Shown: one piece after another, positions 2,959 through 52,693 of the stretch
Numbering within the stretch: position 1 is the stretch's first letter
How the letters are laid out: every line of letters begins with the position of its first letter
IMG/VR virus record: IMGVR_UViG_3300045988_154063
Span: 1-52,693 of that record
From: a virus
DNA length: 52,693 bases
Reading direction: 5' to 3' (one strand)
Translations under genes and position numbers: made by a program
The notes under the pieces: model-generated
What the model was told of the DNA's origin: nothing
Databases searched by the model: none
Seen by the model: the letters and a program-made list of their open reading frames with translations, nothing else

Positions 2959-4128
2959 TCATACCGTGTAATAATAGGTATTACCTGCGGTAGGTGTGCC
3001 ATCAAATGCGCCGCCTGTGTCTGTGAACATATTCCTAACAGCATAGGATGGTACGGTCGACGGACACTTAAATATTTTGTTACCCGACGTAGTGTTAACT
3101 TTTAGTTTCAAACATTTGTAAAACATATTGCTATAGCATCCATCCGTTAACGTAGTAGCAGGGAGTTCGGGCGCGGATGTGAGATTAGAGCAACCGTAGA
3201 ACATAGAGTCGTAGCAATACGGTGCTAATGTAGTAGCAGGGAGTTCGGGCGCGGATGTGAGATTAGAGCAACCAGAGAACATACCGTCGTAACAATGTTC
3301 TGTTAACATAGTGGCTGGGAGTTCGGGCGCGGATGTGAGATTTTTGCAATCGGAGAACATATACGCATAGCAATCCTTTGTGCTTATGCTCGTAGGTGGG
3401 TTTTCCCAATCAAGCAAAGTTTGAATATTACCTGTACAATCCGCTTTTTCGCTTAATTTCCAACTAACAAATGCCTTAAACGTCGTATTCCCCTTTCCTC
3501 TTAAATATAACTTTTTATCAACGCTTTGCATTGCCTCTGTGCCTGCTAACGTTGTCCATGTGTTATGGTCAGTGCTCCATTCCAATGTACCGTCCCATGT
3601 TTTTGACGACGCTTTAAGCGTAAATTCACTGGTTTTTCCTGTGAAAGTTAAGCAATCGGTATATACTTGTGTTCCTTTAACAACTTCCACCCCAGCACTC
3701 TTCTCGCTATCTCTATATCCTGTGCCCTTAGCAACTATTGTAATTGTATGAGTACCGTCAGATAAATTTGCCCAACCGCTAAGCGTTGAAAGGTCGATTT
3801 GCTGCTTTGTTGTAGGAGTGGCTTGTTTTGTTCCATTAGCTTGCAACCAAGTGAGTAAATCTTCTGGTATTGTTCCTGTAAATTCTATTGTTTTGTAGTT
3901 TTCGTTTGTCCATCCCCCATTTAATGGGTTGTATGCGTGTGTGTTTGGTCCTGTTGTTGTTGTATATGTTAATATAGCGTCTTTTTCGTGGTCGGGGTCG
4001 TCTGCCCATTCTACAATGAATATTGTATATTCTTTATTATTTGTTTTGAAATTTGCATGGTAATTTGTTACTTTCCCTGTTGCTGGTGCTAGTTTTGGAG
4101 TGTCGTTTATTAACCAAGTTTCTGACAT
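2959..4128 (-). CDS. Tail protein with BspA-type leucine-rich repeats, a receptor-binding candidate
   Basis: 389 aa. It has three tandem repeats of about 26 aa (CYxxMFxGCSNLTSAPELPATTL), and the DNA beneath them is itself tandemly repeated at 3152..3360. Confidence 0.45.
   Translation of the reverse strand: MSETWLINDTPKLAPATGKVTNYHANFKTNNKEYTIFIVEWADDPDHEKDAILTYTTTTGPNTHAYNPLNGGWTNENYKTIEFTGTIPEDLLTWLQANGTKQATPTTKQQIDLSTLSGWANLSDGTHTITIVAKGTGYRDSEKSAGVEVVKGTQVYTDCLTFTGKTSEFTLKASSKTWDGTLEWSTDHNTWTTLAGTEAMQSVDKKLYLRGKGNTTFKAFVSWKLSEKADCTGNIQTLLDWENPPTSISTKDCYAYMFSDCKNLTSAPELPATMLTEHCYDGMFSGCSNLTSAPELPATTLAPYCYDSMFYGCSNLTSAPELPATTLTDGCYSNMFYKCLKLKVNTTSGNKIFKCPSTVPSYAVRNMFTDTGGAFDGTPTAGNTYYYTV
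3152..3360. repeat. Tandem DNA repeat of about 78-81 bp in roughly three copies inside the LRR tail gene
   Basis: Near-identical units starting at about 3152, 3230 and 3311, each beginning gtagtagcagggagttcgggcgcggatgtgagatt. Confidence 0.8.
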
Positions 4129-21104: not shown

Positions 21105-23114
21105 TTAAAAAGGTCTATTTTTATGAGGTTTAACAAAGTTTTTGTTGTTTGCGTTGATAATAATTTTATCGGCGAACATAGCAAGGCTGTCAGGGAAGTC
21201 GTCGTGTTCGCTTTTATTACCGTCAAAATTGATTAACTGATGAACGGCATAACCGAGTTCCGTTTTGGGGTTTTTCGCTTTTTCCGAGGGGAAAACAATG
21301 TTATGTATAATCGTATCAGCCGCATTGTTTATTCTGGCAAGTTTATTCGCCGTACTATACACTTGTATAAGTTCTACAAGTTTTTCGGCGTTAGGGCTTT
21401 TATCTTTAATCTTAGACTTTAACGCCACTCCTAAGCTCGTATCCGTGTTTTCTTCATACGCTATCTTTATTATTCTATGAGTAAATATTTTACTTACTAT
21501 TTTATCGTATAACTGTAATACTGATTTTCTCTGATATATAACATCTACCAAATAATACATACCGCTTTTTTCATGGTATCTTAAAATAGGCATAGACAAG
21601 AAGTCGTTTGCTTTTCTTCTTGTGGGGTCAAGAGCGGCGAACGCATAGCCCGAAAATTCGTCCATAGGCGGTAATTCGTCGTAGAACTGTAAAAACTCTT
21701 TTGCAAAGATTAAACCGTCCGCAGGGATAGGTTTCTGCCGCCATATGCACCTGTAATCGTACTCTGGCAAACTGTTTCTCTTTTTTGCCAAGTCTTCATT
21801 GCTTATGAACTCTGGAAACGCACTGTTACCGTACTCGTCCTCGCAGTCGTTTATTATTACAATAGTCTTTTTATCAGCCGATATAAAAGTATTTTTAAAT
21901 CTTTCGTCTTTTGTATAACCGTCTAACAAAGCCTTGCTCATTTCCGTGGAGAACACGTCCTCGGGGTTGAACATTGTGCCTGTAAGCAGTATTTTTTTCT
22001 TGTTTTGGTTTTCAAATCTGTCCTGAAAGTCGCCGTTGAACAAATTACATATTCTCATATGTATTGCCATATTAGAACTTTCTTGCTGTCCTCTTGACGG
22101 GTCGTCGAACATTCCTAACTGACATCTTACGGAGTTTATCGCACTATCTCTCGTCTTAAAAATAGAACTTGTAGGTGTATACTTTGCACCCCTTAAACTC
22201 CATTCCTCTTCCGCACCTTTCTCAAACGGTATAAACTTTCCGTCTTTCGTTACATACTCGTTTAATTCTGGATATAAATCAAGTATAAGCGGGTTAAGAA
22301 GAAGCCCAATCGTCTGTCGGCTTTGCCCTAATATATTGTTTTGTTCGTTGCCTACTCTCAAACACCCGCCTTTCTCCTGCAAGTTCCTCGCCAACACCAT
22401 AAACATTTCATTCATAGTATTGCATACAAAACTCTTTCCACTACTCGGCATTGTAGAAAAGATTATCAATTCGGGTTCAATCTTATTCATTTTCCCGCCG
22501 TCGGGCATTCTCATACCGAATATGTTAAGCAACATCTGGTTCGCCCACCATACCGCACTCCTCAATACCCGCATTCGGCTCGGATAACTCTTTTCCCCCT
22601 TTTCTTGCTCCAAATACTGTATATTGTAATGTATAAAGTACCTCCCAGCCATTGCCATACTCTTCTTCCTTATCACTTTATACAAGTATTCAACATTGAT
22701 TATCTGTTCAATGCTCCCGTCCACACCCTTAACTTCCGTCTTTTCACTCCTTTCACTACACCACCCCCTTACTCTCTTTCTTTCTCCATCATCTACCTTA
22801 TACTTATCACTTACATAATACCTCTCTTCTTTCCCACTCTTCTTTATCCCTATGTAATCTCCATACATAATATACCTTAATAAAGCATTCACCCTCGGCA
22901 CGATATACTCATAACACCACACACTTGCCGTGTAATCGTCTTGCGTATCATACACCATCGCCGCTAACTTGTGCATCGCTATCAATCGGTTAAACTCTAC
23001 CTGTATATCATACCCCTTTCCACCTATTACATAAAAACCGTCGGCACCCCTCAATGCCTCCATTACTTTCCAACTCTCTCTTAACCCCTCACTAATCTCT
23101 TTCCCCATATTCAT
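21105..23114 (-). CDS. terL: Terminase large subunit
   Basis: 669 aa. The C-terminal nuclease motifs are present (AFAALDPTRR, and EHDDFPDSLAMFA matching the DDxxDAL signature). A Walker-A-like PSSGKS is present, and the protein has an N-terminal extension of about 170 aa. Confidence 0.65.
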   Translation of the reverse strand: MNMGKEISEGLRESWKVMEALRGADGFYVIGGKGYDIQVEFNRLIAMHKLAAMVYDTQDDYTASVWCYEYIVPRVNALLRYIMYGDYIGIKKSGKEERYYVSDKYKVDDGERKRVRGWCSERSEKTEVKGVDGSIEQIINVEYLYKVIRKKSMAMAGRYFIHYNIQYLEQEKGEKSYPSRMRVLRSAVWWANQMLLNIFGMRMPDGGKMNKIEPELIIFSTMPSSGKSFVCNTMNEMFMVLARNLQEKGGCLRVGNEQNNILGQSRQTIGLLLNPLILDLYPELNEYVTKDGKFIPFEKGAEEEWSLRGAKYTPTSSIFKTRDSAINSVRCQLGMFDDPSRGQQESSNMAIHMRICNLFNGDFQDRFENQNKKKILLTGTMFNPEDVFSTEMSKALLDGYTKDERFKNTFISADKKTIVIINDCEDEYGNSAFPEFISNEDLAKKRNSLPEYDYRCIWRQKPIPADGLIFAKEFLQFYDELPPMDEFSGYAFAALDPTRRKANDFLSMPILRYHEKSGMYYLVDVIYQRKSVLQLYDKIVSKIFTHRIIKIAYEENTDTSLGVALKSKIKDKSPNAEKLVELIQVYSTANKLARINNAADTIIHNIVFPSEKAKNPKTELGYAVHQLINFDGNKSEHDDFPDSLAMFADKIIINANNKNFVKPHKNRPF

Positions 23115-23317
23115 ACCGTCCCCTTAAATAGGTTCTTCTTTAATTTCTTGTTCTCTTGCTCAAACGATATCCCCTCATTTATGTGCGTCTGACACCGCCT
23201 GTCCTCATATACTCCTATCTCTATACTCCACTCTCTCCCACCTATCAGCTGCTTGTCTACCTCTTCCCAACTCCCACCTTTCGTCTTTATCTCTCTCTTA
23301 TCACTCTTGCTCTTCAT
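23111..23317 (-). CDS. Hypothetical protein
   Basis: 68 aa ORF overlapping the start of TerL by 4 nt. Confidence 0.3.
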   Translation of the reverse strand: MKSKSDKREIKTKGGSWEEVDKQLIGGREWSIEIGVYEDRRCQTHINEGISFEQENKKLKKNLFKGTV

Positions 23318-23534
23318 AACCTTTCTTATACTCTCCCTTTAATATCTTGCTTTCCCCTATCTTTAACTTCCTGCACCAATCTTCTACCTCCACCACTTTC
23401 CACATCTTGTCCTCTCGCCTTACCGCCTGAAATACCCACTGCCTGCTCACCCCCAACTTTTCACCAACTTCCTTATAAGTCCAACCCCTGTTCTTAAACA
23501 CCTTTAAAAACCGCTTGCCTATCTCATTGCTCAT
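23301..23534 (-). CDS. HTH protein, a small terminase subunit candidate
   Basis: 77 aa, first gene of the late operon. It has a helix-turn-helix (TYKEVGEKLGVSRQWVFQAV) and an AGGAG ribosome-binding site 9 nt upstream. Confidence 0.4.
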   Translation of the reverse strand: MSNEIGKRFLKVFKNRGWTYKEVGEKLGVSRQWVFQAVRREDKMWKVVEVEDWCRKLKIGESKILKGEYKKGYEEQE

Positions 23535-23557
23535 TTATATTAACTCCTATCACCACT

Positions 23558-23629
23558 TGTCAAGGATTACTTGACACCTTTTTTATTACTATACCACCTC
23601 TTTTTTCACTTGTCAAGGATTATTTGACA
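23558..23629 (-). promoter_or_regulatory. Late-operon promoter (TTGACA-17-TATAGT on the minus strand) with two copies of the palindromic operator TGTCAAGGATTA(C/T)TTGACA
   Basis: On the minus strand the -35 is encoded at 23616..23611 and the -10 at 23593..23588. Inverted repeat copies lie at 23558..23576 (overlapping the transcription start and leader) and 23611..23629 (overlapping the -35). Confidence 0.55.
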
Positions 23630-23839
23630 ACTCTTTGATTGCTTGACACTTTTATGTTTGGGAAATTGGGAGAGGGAGTATGTTAAGTTTTATTGACACC
23701 TTTTATTTTTTGAGAATTACTCGGGGGAGTACCAACACCGCCCTCGGTCGTTCTTCAAATAGGGGACAGCCCCGCCGCGCCCATTAAAAAAAAGAATAAA
23801 AAATATTTATAAAAACTTTTATAAACTATATAAAAATAG

Positions 23840-23868
23840 TTGCATTATAAAATCTTTCATGTTATAAT
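23840..23868 (+). promoter_or_regulatory. Sigma-A-type promoter TTGCAT-17-TATAAT driving the GC-rich noncoding locus
   Basis: TTGCAT is at 23840..23845 and TATAAT at 23863..23868, separated by a 17 nt spacer. Confidence 0.55.
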
Positions 23869-23876
23869 GAGCGTAG

Positions 23877-24195
23877 CGAAAAGCTAAAGAGCACAGCCCG
23901 CAACCCCTCCGCCATTCTGGCAAGGTTGCGAGACCGGCGCACGAAGTCCGAGAGCGGGAAAACGACGGAAAAGCCCGCATGGGCTGTCGCGAAGCAAGAA
24001 GGTTGAAAATGGTTCAAAACGGCGGCAACATGCCGCAACTATGAGCAGAGCACGCATGCGAGGTCGTTAGGCGCATGCATGTGGCGGGGGCTGAAATGCC
24101 CGTAAAAAGAGAGTCGCAACCGATGACAAGGCGCACGCACTCCCCGCGATAACGTCGCATGTAACGGCGGTAAGATAGGGCGTTACAAGTTTTTT
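23877..24195 (+). ncRNA. Candidate structured ncRNA of unknown family: GC-rich, ORF-free and bounded by a promoter and terminators
   Basis: About 60-65% GC in a genome of about 40% GC, with no ORF of 60 aa or more in any frame. Internal repeated motifs are GGCGCACG (x2), AACGGCGG (x2) and CGCATG (x3), and there are many local GC helices (gcggcaacatgccgc, agcccgcatgggct, gcgggg...ccccgc). Terminator 1 is at 24160..24195 (tgtaacg/cgttaca followed by TTTTTT) and terminator 2 at 24258..24284 (agccatg/catggct followed by TTTTT). Confidence 0.45.
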
Positions 24196-24257
24196 GTTTG
24201 AGATTACTTTTTTATTATTCTTTTTTCTGATAAAAATAGCACACATAAAAAGAACAG

Positions 24258-24284
24258 AGCCATGTTATTATTGCATGGCTTTTT
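24258..24284 (+). terminator. Rho-independent terminator, second of two after the ncRNA candidate
   Basis: A 7 bp stem (agccatg/catggct) with a 9 nt loop is followed by a U-run. Confidence 0.5.
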
Positions 24285-24554
24285 GAGTGCAAAGAGTTTT
24301 TCGGGGCTGTAAAGGTCAACTGCTTGACAGCATCACCGCCCCGCCTCACGTAGTTATATATTACAATATAAGCATTACTACAATATATAATATATAATAT
24401 TCAAGCGTTATATCTTGTAATATACTATCGTATAATATAAACTTCCGTACTCATTATATTTTTTCTTATACGTTTTTTAATATAAATAAAAAGCGTATAA
24501 CCATTTACATGAGTAAATCATGTATAAATATTTTTTTGAGGAGGTTAAAAAAAA

Positions 24555-25082: not shown

Positions 25083-25222
25083 CAATAACGGCATTAAAGG
25101 CGGCAATCGGGTTGATTATCGCCCGTCAAGCCGCACACGGCAACAAGGAAGAACAAAAACGCATAAACGCAAAACTTGATAAATTGTACGAATTAAAAGC
25201 AATTTTATTATCGCAAAAATAA
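25079..25222 (+). CDS. Hypothetical small protein
   Basis: 47 aa, coupled to the upstream gene through an ATGA overlap. It falls below the 60 aa cutoff of the ORF track. Confidence 0.25.
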   Translation: MTITALKAAIGLIIARQAAHGNKEEQKRINAKLDKLYELKAILLSQK

Positions 25223-25306
25223 CAGAGCGGAACGCCTGCGGGCGTTTTAATGTCACGGCGCACACGGTCGCAAGTGCCGACAGCGCAAAAACGGAGGTAT
25301 AAAAAA

Positions 25307-25702
25307 ATGTTAAGAACAAACAGCAAAAAAGCAATCGAAAATTTGAAAAAATGGACGGTCGAACATTTCGACGCGGACGGGTACAACGATTTTAACGGCG
25401 ATGAAAATAATTTTTCGGATTGTGCGAAGTATATATATCGCGTTTTCCTGCGTGAAAAATATAAAGGCGCGGAGAATTACTATCGCAATGCAAGCATGCA
25501 AGACATCTTTACAGATTGGTGTGCGGGCTTGCCGTCGGTACTTGATACCGCCGATTATTATTACACGCGCAACGCCGTTGACGTGCTCGGCGAAATACTC
25601 GAAGAAACCGAAGAAGAAAAAGCGCGCTATTCACGGACGCAAGCCGAAAATCTTTTATCGGCGTTGTTATGGCTGCATATATCGAAAAGCGCAAGAAGTT
25701 AA
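25307..25702 (+). CDS. Hypothetical protein
   Basis: 131 aa counted from the ATG preceded by ACGGAGGT. Confidence 0.4.
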   Translation: MLRTNSKKAIENLKKWTVEHFDADGYNDFNGDENNFSDCAKYIYRVFLREKYKGAENYYRNASMQDIFTDWCAGLPSVLDTADYYYTRNAVDVLGEILEETEEEKARYSRTQAENLLSALLWLHISKSARS

Positions 25703-38645: not shown

Positions 38646-39407
38646 ATGGCTAAAATACGAGTAAACAAAACAACTAACTATACGATAATGAGCAATGTTT
38701 TTCTTAGAGATAAGCGGTTATCCTTAAAAGCAAAGGGTTTACTCGCTTTAATGTTTTCGTTGCCCGAAGAGTGGAACTATTCCGTTGACGGACTTACAAC
38801 TTTGTCCGCTGATGGGAAAGATAGCATAGCAACGGCTATTACCGAACTTGAAAAATATGGCTATCTTATAAGAACACAAGCAAAAGATAATAATGGTAAA
38901 TTTGCGGGTTATGTTTATGATGTATACGAAGAACCGCAAACGGAAATTCCGTTTACGGAAAATCCGTCAACGGTAAAACCGATTACGGAAAATCGCCCAC
39001 AAATAAATACTTATATAATAAATAAAGAAGAAGTAAATAAAGAAGATAAACACACACCCCCCTATAATTCCCCCAAATCGCAAGGTGGACAAAAAGGTGG
39101 AAAAAATTCCACCATACCCACTTATGGGCTTGAAGAGTTCTTACAAGACAATCCGCAAATAAGAGTTGACAATTACAACGGCATAATAGACGATATGAAC
39201 TTTGCGGAACTTACAAGACGAATAAGAGAAAGTTCGTGGTTACAACAAGTCGAAGATTTTTCTTTTTTCTGCCTTAAATACAACAAGATAATTTCGGGCG
39301 GTTATAAGGACATTGAAAAGCAAGATAAAACAGATAAACAGCAAGGACAGAAAAGGGAAGAGGAGAAACCTAAGAAGAAATATTATTACAATTGCGTAAG
39401 GTGTTAG
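38646..39407 (+). CDS. Replication initiator or replisome organizer (DnaD-like N-terminal winged helix)
   Basis: N-terminus ...MSNVFLRDKRLSLKAKGLLALMFSLPEEWNYSVDGL..., internal iterons, and a DnaC-like loader gene immediately downstream. Confidence 0.6.
   Translation: MAKIRVNKTTNYTIMSNVFLRDKRLSLKAKGLLALMFSLPEEWNYSVDGLTTLSADGKDSIATAITELEKYGYLIRTQAKDNNGKFAGYVYDVYEEPQTEIPFTENPSTVKPITENRPQINTYIINKEEVNKEDKHTPPYNSPKSQGGQKGGKNSTIPTYGLEEFLQDNPQIRVDNYNGIIDDMNFAELTRRIRESSWLQQVEDFSFFCLKYNKIISGGYKDIEKQDKTDKQQGQKREEEKPKKKYYYNCVRC
38941..38998. repeat. Iteron-like direct repeats ((T)TACGGAAAATC x2 plus ACGGTAAAACC) inside the initiator gene, a putative origin
   Basis: ccgtttacggaaaatccg ... acggtaaaaccg ... 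attacggaaaatcgcc. Confidence 0.5.
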
Positions 39408-51505: not shown

Positions 51506-52636
51506 TTACATTCCTTTAATTACGCAAGTTCCAAAATTCCTCGTCAAATACACGCTATTTGATATTTGTATGTTTTGCAAAACAGCACCCTGCCCGTATG
51601 GTGTCGGACGAACAATTCTTATAGCCCTTGGTGCTGAGCCATGAAAAGTACTGTTATTACTTGTGCAAGTATATTTAAGTCCTTTGTTTGGTTGGTCGGT
51701 AGAATGATTTACCGTAAGCACAAGAATGTTTCTGCCTGTCGCTATATTTGCAATGTCCGCTTCAGTAATAATTTTATAAGCAAATGCTTTAAGTTTTTGC
51801 CTATATCTTATATTGGTCTGCATACCATTTACACGATTATATGCTTTTTTTGCAATAGGTCTACAAATTTCCAACCTATCACCAGCTTGCAAACTACCAG
51901 ATATTACACGAACACGAATTTTGTGTTGAGATAATTGGTCTTGTGGGTCAATTCTATACGAATTAGTGCTTGCAACACTAATTAAGACTGTCGCATTACT
52001 GCCAGAGCCACCACCGCCACCGCCTGTCGAAGTTTGCACAACTGTTTCGGTTATATCGTAAACGTCAATAGTAAATTCTGCATTGCCGCCCGATGACGCG
52101 CTTGCTACAACATTTAACGAATTATTGGTTGGGTTTACAAAAATACCCGTGTATGGTGTGGTGGTGTATCCGTCAGTTTTTATAGCCATTGGGTAAAACT
52201 TACCGTTAAACTTTGCAAGAAATGTTTTAAGATTATCTACGCTTGTTCCTACAATAGCAGCAGCGGAAGCACTCGGTATCATTATAGAACCCCAGCCTGC
52301 AATATCCGCATCATCAGTTCTATAAAACCCGAACGATACCAAATGAGCATAAGCCCCTGCACTTGAACCGCCACTGCCGCCACCGCTTATTTCAAGGTCG
52401 CCCTCTCCTAAAATCGACTGACCGTTTATGGTTTTAACGTTTTTGCCACTTACTAATAACGGTTGTTTTTTGTCTAAATCTTCGGCAGCCGCTAAGGAGC
52501 AAGTTTTTGCAGGTAACGTTACAATTACATTGGTAGTTCCATACCCAACTGCCATATTGGCTTGTAAGGTAGTACCATAATCTGAATGTCTACTGTCTTT
52601 AAACAATATTTGGCTTTTGTAAAAGTCAAATTGCAT
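51506..52636 (-). CDS. Gly-rich tail fibre or structural protein
   Basis: 376 aa with poly-Gly linkers (GGGSGGSSAG, GGGGGGSGSN). It follows the tail fibre genes in the circular order, and its start lies within the terminal repeat. Confidence 0.4.
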   Translation of the reverse strand: MQFDFYKSQILFKDSRHSDYGTTLQANMAVGYGTTNVIVTLPAKTCSLAAAEDLDKKQPLLVSGKNVKTINGQSILGEGDLEISGGGSGGSSAGAYAHLVSFGFYRTDDADIAGWGSIMIPSASAAAIVGTSVDNLKTFLAKFNGKFYPMAIKTDGYTTTPYTGIFVNPTNNSLNVVASASSGGNAEFTIDVYDITETVVQTSTGGGGGGSGSNATVLISVASTNSYRIDPQDQLSQHKIRVRVISGSLQAGDRLEICRPIAKKAYNRVNGMQTNIRYRQKLKAFAYKIITEADIANIATGRNILVLTVNHSTDQPNKGLKYTCTSNNSTFHGSAPRAIRIVRPTPYGQGAVLQNIQISNSVYLTRNFGTCVIKGM

Positions 52637-52693
52637 TGAGTTGTTTTCTTCGCCCCTTAAACCACCTGAAGCGGGCGCGAGAACTCCAAACCC
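52561..52693. repeat. Second copy of the terminal direct repeat (identical to 1..133)
   Basis: Exact identity over 133 nt. Confidence 0.9.

Follow-up and report, generated by a model that had tools for sequence, protein, structure and literature searches.

What is encoded by the most GC-rich stretch of an uncultivated gut phage genome, when no gene is called within it? The question is raised by positions 23840-24284 of IMG/VR record IMGVR_UViG_3300045988_154063, the whole 52,693-nucleotide (nt) sequence of which is referred to here as the window. A first-pass annotation had marked this locus as a candidate large structured non-coding RNA (ncRNA) outside the known families, bounded by a promoter and by terminators. 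Comparison with homologous loci now indicates that the locus very probably does encode a structured ncRNA, transcribed rightward from an early promoter termed P_E, and that this RNA belongs to a small uncatalogued family carried by one clade of gut siphophages whose large terminases (TerL) are at least 79% identical. A function as the cis-acting leader of the immediate-early operon is put forward far more tentatively.

Composition and coding potential

The compositional anomaly that first drew attention to the locus is real. Positions 23883-24182, at 59.0% GC, are the top 300-nt window of the genome and lie about 4.4 standard deviations (sd) over the genome-wide mean of 37.7% (sd of 300-nt windows, 4.8). 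The GC content of the locus was found to be 57-61%, slightly lower than the 60-65% initially given. The region is also poor in T, the base composition of 23876-24195 being A 29, C 26, G 31 and T 14%.

As had been observed, no open reading frame (ORF) of the locus reaches 60 aa on either strand (translation table 11). Its longest ORFs, of 53-59 aa, lie on the minus strand, and no gene has been called in this intergenic gap in any contig. Stop-free minus-strand stretches of 53-129 codons in several variants of the locus could be taken as traces of a hidden protein-coding gene, either a small ORF or one with a reassigned stop codon. However, all three minus-strand frames are open there, a compositional effect of an A-poor strand. 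Of the 28 internal indels that distinguish homologues, 21 have lengths not divisible by three, no 3-periodicity was found in the substitutions between them, and the length of the locus varies from 170 to about 450 nt; the neighbouring genes, moreover, use the standard genetic code. The absence of a conserved reading frame across homologues fits a structured ncRNA, and a hidden gene is considered very improbable.

ARAGORN recognised no tRNA or tmRNA gene in the window. A template repeat of a diversity-generating retroelement, or another genomic repeat, was rejected as an explanation, no long repeat of the locus sequence being present anywhere else in the window. Single-sequence folding energy was unremarkable (z = -1.8 for the plus strand and -0.6 for the minus strand), so the evidence for structure comes from comparison with relatives and not from thermodynamics.

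Homologous loci and covarying helices

Homologous contigs (numbered here with the prefix L or P) were collected through terminase homologues and the members of their 90% clusters, and a pattern scan of metagenomic contigs added one more. In all, eight versions of the locus could be distinguished, from about five or six lineages: that of the window; L002/L004; L036; L037 and L048; and L005, L031/L032 and L033. Their lengths range from about 170 nt in L036 to about 450 nt in L002 and L037. Ten contigs that encode an identical first early protein were 100% identical to the window throughout the intergenic region and thus uninformative, and contig P0120 ends before the locus.

Among these versions the stems differ almost wholly between lineages, and the loops and joining segments are invariant. 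The alignments of two hairpins, P2 and P4, were anchored on their invariant loops, the anchors being chosen by the analyst. In the P2 alignment (A4; eight sequences, eight pairs) 89% of the cells are paired and seven of the eight pairs have changed on both sides, with none of 500 shuffles reaching the score and slid controls pairing at 22-45%. The corresponding P4 alignment (A5; seven sequences, seven pairs) has 98% of its cells paired and all seven pairs changed on both sides, and six different stem sequences are found around a single loop; again no shuffle out of 500 reached the score, and the slid controls for P2 and P4 together paired at 22-53%.

Other helices behave similarly. RNAalifold predicted 10 pairs for P1/P1a from six sequences, six of them compensatory, and 11 pairs for P0 from four sequences, three of them compensatory (e.g., GCCA/UGGC to GCUA/UAGC). 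Between the window and L002, an extra hairpin shows a compensatory change (GCGGC/GCCGC versus GCGGG/CCCGC), and the interior of the P3 domain has three compensatory pairs. Helices are thus kept by compensatory substitutions across homologues, the generic mark of a structured ncRNA. The plus strand is suggested as the RNA sense by nine G-U cells in the P0, P1, P2 and P4 helices, which would be A-C mismatches on the opposite strand. An unconstrained minimum-free-energy fold of the 180-nt L036 RNA in the plus sense recovered P1, P2, P3 and P4 together, and the antisense strand folded no better than shuffled sequence.

Architecture of the RNA

Based on an E-INS-i alignment of the locus versions, the RNA has a core of about 170 nt that consists, in order, of a 5' motif, P1/P1a, GAAGAUUGAYAA, P2, AACGG, P3, GAUAACGUC, P4 and AAGUU. 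The size of 300-400 nt originally proposed does not describe the conserved structure, as the rest of the 320 nt in the window is made up of lineage-specific inserted domains. There are three such insertions in the window: P0, the extra hairpin and the domain closed by P3. All coordinates below refer to its plus strand.

The 5' element of the core carries the motif AAAAGAUAAGG. In the alignments the conserved single-stranded 5' motif occupies 23879-23892 and reads AAAAGCUAAAGAGC in the window and AAAAGAUAAGGCAA in relatives. Domain P0 (23897-23930), found only in the window, L037, L048 and L002, is formed by a helix (23900-05/23924-29) with an internal loop CCUCC (23906-10) and a hairpin GCCA-UUC-UGGC (23911-21). 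P1 and the hairpin P1a that it encloses lie at 23963-23989, with CGAC (23963-66) facing GUCG (23986-89) and GCCC (23973-76) facing GGGC (23981-84). The joining motif J1/2 (23998-24009), GAAGGUUGAAAA in the window and GAAGAUUGAYAA in relatives, stands exactly 18 nt before the UCGUUAG loop in six compact variants. Only the window and L002 have the extra hairpin, GCGGC-AACAU-GCCGC in the window (24022-24036).

Hairpin P2 (24054-24078) has a stem of 24054-60/24072-78 and an 11-nt loop, AGGUCGUUAGG (24061-71), which includes the invariant UCGUUAG. P3 (24084-24147) pairs GCGGGG (24084-89) with CCCCGC (24142-47), a pairing already pointed out in the first-pass annotation, and closes a lineage-specific GC-rich domain of about 52 nt that contains a GAAA-type hairpin (24089-24100) and the motif CGUAAAAAG. 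L002 retains the helix, around a 52-nt domain, as does L036, where the loop is only 6-7 nt; at the same site the L005-type phages carry about 190 nt of AT-rich TATAC repeats. The joining segment J3/4 (24146-24156) reads GCGAUAACGUC, and its GAUAACGUC is invariant in all variants. From complementarity, a pseudoknot between UAACG of J3/4 and CGUUA of the P2 loop is possible, although both partners are invariant. A loop-loop pairing of J1/2 with the P4 loop was also considered and rejected as inconsistent across variants.

Hairpin P4 (24160-24187; stem 24160-66/24181-87) has a conserved loop of 14-15 nt, GCGGUAAGAUAGGG in the window and GYGGUUAAUAUAGG in relatives, and is followed by a conserved AAGUU tail and a run of six U residues (24188-24200). 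What had been read as a first terminator at 24160-24195 is this core hairpin: a U-run occurs 3' of P4 only in the window and L005, and is missing from L002, L030, L031, L033, L036 and L037. P4 and the U6 run together may form a first, lineage-specific terminator.

The short repeats recorded earlier also find a place in this architecture. GGCGCACG and AACGGCGG each occur twice, as described, and CGCATG occurs four times and not three; its copies lie in the P1a loop, on both strands of the palindromic P2 stem and just 5' of P4.

Range of the family

Searches of several kinds returned no member outside the clade. Two covariance models, R1 (J3/4 and P4) and R2 (P2), matched the known loci only, among 28 sources (300 kb) that included terminase relatives at 44-68% identity; the window site scored 65 bits with R1 (P4) and 37 bits with R2 (P2). 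A TerL profile run on IMG/VR and GTDB genomes recovered only relatives at 44-56% identity, all of which lack the RNA, and two RNA patterns scanned over IMG/VR gave either nothing or chance matches in coding regions.

The earlier view that the RNA belongs to no known family was borne out, homologues covarying without a conserved ORF and neither the window locus nor five homologues giving a confident Rfam hit. With Rfam 15 at the gathering threshold, the only match in the whole window was a Twister-P5 ribozyme outside the locus. At E<=10 the locus gave only chance matches to sRNAs and snoRNAs (11-21 bits against thresholds of 50-100), and at E<=1 nothing was found in the locus of five divergent homologues. 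The families covered include GOLLD, ROOL, HEARO, raiA, 6S, tmRNA, group I and II introns, T-box, riboswitches and small ribozymes. BLAST searches with the window RNA and the compact L036 RNA found no match among GenBank phages or PLSDB plasmids, and the invariant motifs are absent from the first 200 of the 408 files in the supplement of a human-microbiome survey of structured RNAs (PMC8040213).

Promoter, terminators and the early leader

P_E (23840-23868) has the -35 hexamer TTGCAT (23840-45), a 17-nt spacer and an extended -10 element TGtTATAAT (23860-68), with transcription predicted to start near 23875. The promoter is thus present as first annotated, although its -35 hexamer matches at only 3/6 positions, and for this reason P_E was not listed by a consensus scan. 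Orthologous promoters score 12/12 with TG in L036 and L002, 11/12 with TG in L031 and 10/12 in L037. The position is kept in L002, L036, L037, L005 and L031, the spacer sequence varying freely, and no other promoter of the region comes close to P_E.

P_E also aligns in register with the early promoter of two relatives that lack the RNA, L009 and L006, as do the sequence context upstream of it (AAAACTATGTAAAAA..TTG) and the first bases of the transcript (AGACAGUYAAA). In these relatives a stretch of 50-60 nt, free of terminators, separates the early promoter from the first early gene. Their short leader already holds AGAUUGAC and one hairpin, so that the RNA looks like an expansion of the early leader.

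The second terminator reported earlier was confirmed as an intrinsic terminator, T2 (24256-24287), with stem core GCCAUG/CAUGGC and a U5 tail (-13.5 kcal/mol, z = -3.0). A strong equivalent occurs 30-70 nt past P4 in L036, L037 and L002. For the L005-type loci a candidate hairpin and U-run were read by eye and are unconfirmed, and none was found in L031. The order promoter, RNA, terminator and early genes, all in the same sense, therefore holds in the window, L002, L036 and L037, with the terminator unconfirmed in L005-type loci.

The rest of the early leader (24290-24553) contains an operator-like palindrome (24315-28), an AT-rich block and conserved hairpins 5' of the ribosome-binding site, and the first early gene begins at ATG 24554. 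The stretch from terminator to gene 1 in the window, L036, L037, L002 and L031 has only 9/12 promoter matches, which are as frequent as in shuffled sequence. Gene 1 is unrelated between most of the RNA-bearing phages, which suggests that the RNA goes with the start of the operon and not with one gene.

Several other elements were noted around the leader. Just before the ribosome-binding site of gene 1, at 24470-24535, are two small hairpins of the 5' untranslated region whose stems vary and stay paired (AUACG/CGUAU versus AAACG/CGUUU; UUUACAUGA/UCAUGUAAA versus CUAUAAC/GUUAUAG). The palindrome 3' of the RNA's terminator is GTCAA-CTGC-TTGAC (24315-24328). Another palindrome, TTGTCAAG-N5-CTTGACAA, is repeated between the two gene arms together with extra TTGACA half-sites (23554-23590, 23607-23643, about 23640 and 23693-98). 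These palindromes and half-sites are probably operators. A second GC-rich element, element A (23715-23785), consists of a hairpin CGGGGG...CCCUCG and AUAGGGG-loop-CCCC. It is kept even in relatives that lack the RNA, and contigs L003 and L049 terminate within it; element A may be a cos site or a physical genome end. A T-poor, A/C-rich block of 100-250 nt lies 3' of element A in L002, L036, L005, L006 and L009 and is missing in the window.

Function of the RNA and alternative explanations

From its position, the RNA is tentatively favoured as a cis-acting 5' leader of the immediate-early operon. Host RNA polymerase would initiate at P_E and transcribe the RNA, which would fold and act on the elongating polymerase through its conserved loops and joining segments, either unaided or together with a host or phage factor. 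Part of the transcription would then pass P4/U6 and the strong T2 into the rightward early gene block of about 20 kb, the device being one of processive antitermination or of attenuation control. This interpretation is suggested by the orthology of P_E with the early-gene promoter of RNA-less relatives, by the lack of any promoter match above chance level (9/12) between the terminator and gene 1, and by the terminator 3' of the RNA, which is strong in the window, L036, L037 and L002. The RNA lies in sense between an operon promoter and a terminator, the arrangement expected of an antitermination RNA; homology to a known member of that class was not found in Rfam, GenBank phages or PLSDB, canT being compared by description. 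Early regulation, anti-defence and packaging had all been named as possible roles, without a choice among them; of these, early regulation is now the best supported, the RNA being located within the early-operon leader.

Several observations weigh against this interpretation. The covariation is based on about five or six independent lineages, with alignments self-anchored on conserved loops, and the mechanism is deduced from position throughout. With a terminator as strong as T2 (-13.5 to -15.3 kcal/mol), the transcript would come off as a discrete RNA of 250-420 nt, which is what a stand-alone RNA gene would yield. No sequence or structural likeness to put, EAR or any Rfam family was found. 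Weak or activator-dependent promoters are possible in the AT-rich stretch, e.g., at a conserved TATAAT (24431-36). There are few candidate plus-strand terminators deeper in the early block, so that little need would exist for a processive device past T2, and close relatives do without the RNA altogether.

The same promoter and strong terminator, found in the window, L036, L037 and L002, could also be seen as a complete gene for a stable RNA that acts in trans, away from its template. This is nearly as likely as the cis-acting leader, though doubtful in itself. Such an RNA might titrate a host defence or RNA-binding protein as a decoy or sponge, help to take over the host, or confer immunity in the manner of P4 CI or P1 C4. 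The U-poor, GC-rich composition suits a stable RNA, the insertion of modular domains around a conserved core is typical of stable ncRNAs, and the conserved hairpin loops resemble protein- or RNA-binding sites. Furthermore, if the contig ends in element A mark cos, the locus would be terminal on the packaged DNA and might be injected early. However, the promoter is the orthologue of an early-gene promoter, with none equivalent seen past T2; the conserved motifs have no complementary target anywhere in the phage genome; and no partner protein gene consistently adjoins the RNA, gene 1 being variable. An antisense regulator of a phage gene was rejected, as the complement of the conserved motifs was not found elsewhere in the window.

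A riboswitch- or T-box-like leader, whose core would sense a small molecule, tRNA or ion and switch the downstream terminator, would agree with the 5' leader position, with highly conserved joining regions between covarying helices and with the terminator downstream, to which P4 itself with its U-run may be added in the window and L005. It is nevertheless improbable, given that no riboswitch or T-box in Rfam matched at E<=10, that T2 lies 30-70 nt past the core with no evident alternative pairing, and that P4 is without a U-run in most variants. The downstream gene also differs between phages, whereas riboswitches are expected to precede a conserved class of gene, and the taxonomic range is very narrow. 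Hardly more can be said for an element acting as DNA, such as accessory packaging sites by cos or single-strand hairpins for replication or priming. The locus is about 100 nt from the conserved GC-rich element in which two independent contigs end, it is near the terminase genes, and J1/2 (GATTGACAA) resembles the TTGACA operator half-sites of the region. But covarying stems with conserved loops are foreign to the evolution of protein sites on duplex DNA, the G-U pairs make the structure strand-specific, a promoter and terminator are conserved around the locus, and the TTGACA-like hexamer varies (TTGAAA, TTGATA, TTTACA). The likely origin, with iterons, is elsewhere (38928-38987), and on account of these iterons a replication origin or primer RNA was rejected for the locus.

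Genomic setting

The source is an uncultivated gut phage with a circularly assembled genome. An exact 119-nt direct repeat at both ends of the record (1-119 = 52575-52693) indicates a circular or concatemeric assembly, so that the actual genome length is 52,574 bp. The identical phage is present in many human-gut assemblies. No close relative was found among GenBank phages, or in IMG/VR when queried with TerL and with the first early protein. The terminase relatives were recovered from human, pig and Hadza gut samples, as well as from metagenome-assembled genomes of Christensenellaceae and Clostridia.

To the left of the locus, the leftward arm begins with a 77-aa helix-turn-helix protein (23301-23534, minus strand) that matches HTH_23 and sigma-70 region 4, followed by the 669-aa TerL (21105-23114) and, beyond it, by an SPP1-type portal gene and an HK97-type capsid gene. 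The rightward arm, from 24554, encodes an FtsK-like ATPase, YqaJ/RecT recombination genes, a methylase and a DnaC-like loader. Three direct repeats of 15 nt (GAAAWTCCGTYWACG) at 38928-38987, within the gene of an HTH_36 protein that adjoins a DnaC/IstB-like ATPase gene, form an iteron site that is probably the replication origin. A 78-nt unit is repeated three times in tandem at 3122-3374, inside a 389-aa ORF (2959-4128, minus strand), with its GC-rich core GGGAGTTCGGGCGCGGATGTGAGATT kept.

The Twister-P5 ribozyme (RF02684) lies at 25221-25280 on the plus strand (39.0 bits against a gathering threshold of 37.6), in an 85-nt spacer of the early operon between a 47-aa gene and the next gene. It is also found in L037 (1266-1325, minus strand, 43.9 bits), L048 (3144-3203, minus strand, 43.9 bits) and L002 (3577-3636, minus strand, 38.6 bits). 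The listed 150-aa ORF at 25250-25702 begins inside the ribozyme, and ATG 25307 is probably its actual start. An N-like, arginine-rich partner protein for the leader RNA was rejected on the same ground, the Arg-rich N-terminus of this ORF being a read-through of the ribozyme. In L020, L021 and L024, otherwise identical copies of the phage, an 80-nt deletion (25158-25237) takes away the end of the 47-aa gene and reaches 17 nt into the ribozyme, so that intact and truncated ribozymes form a natural polymorphism.

Comparison with known systems

RNAs that control elongation by themselves are, to our knowledge, rare and have mostly been found through genetics (put, EAR, canT and conAn2). It is possible, and is suggested here with still more reserve than the cis-acting leader itself, that the present RNA represents a new structural class of phage RNA, one that reprograms the host RNA polymerase of gut Clostridia without protein, by processive antitermination, or, if element A is cos, that it is injected early, transcribed at once and used as a decoy for a host factor of defence or RNA binding. 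Only a handful of RNAs are so far documented for either mechanism. If elongation control is its role, the compact and modular core of about 170 nt would provide a Firmicute model for recognition of RNA polymerase or of RNA by protein, would mark where early transcription begins in phages of this group and would supply a portable part for terminator bypass. If it acts in trans instead, it would join the very few phage ncRNAs that have structured, conserved cores. The family is supported well enough for deposition as a new RNA motif even if it stays an orphan. Its carriers are abundant uncultivated phages of the human and pig gut, and its versions illustrate how such RNAs may grow, whole domains being inserted into a minimal early leader.

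Among systems that depend on a protein, the nut site of lambda, on which N acts, has a boxA-spacer-boxB layout in the early leader, that is, a single-stranded motif at a fixed distance from a hairpin. The position of J1/2, a fixed 18 nt before P2, recalls this layout, with the loop and not the stem conserved. The present RNA differs in being much larger, in having motifs unrelated to boxA and boxB and in the lack of an N-like arginine-rich protein among those found. GOLLD, ROOL, raiA, HEARO/omega RNA and OLE are likewise GC-rich and structured; their functions are unknown or have only recently begun to emerge, and phages carry some of them. Like the locus described here, these large orphan ncRNAs were found as GC-rich, ORF-free islands with covariation; the present RNA, however, matches none of their covariance models at E<=10, its core is far smaller and its range is one narrow phage clade.

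The put RNAs of HK022 provide the nearest parallel in position and genetic logic. They lie just 3' of the early promoters P_L and P_R, in sense and before terminators, and are built of stem-loops, measure about 70 nt and need no phage protein for their action in cis on RNA polymerase (PMC9378689). However, put has two stems, is found in a lambdoid coliphage and has the beta' zinc-binding domain as its target. The RNA described here, from a Clostridia-type gut siphophage, has a core of about 170 nt that insertions extend to 320-450 nt; it resembles put neither in sequence nor in structure, and antitermination by it is a deduction from position. The canT RNA of Tn916, beside which the conAn2 RNA of pLS20 is cited, is a structured RNA of 452 nt from a Firmicute that lies between the main promoter and the terminators of a long operon and has been shown experimentally to act in cis, processively and in an orientation-specific manner (PMC11658703). 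It is part of a conjugative element, its function is experimentally demonstrated, and it has no known conserved-loop hairpins like P2 and P4; compared by description, it resembles the present RNA in size class, host phylum and layout.

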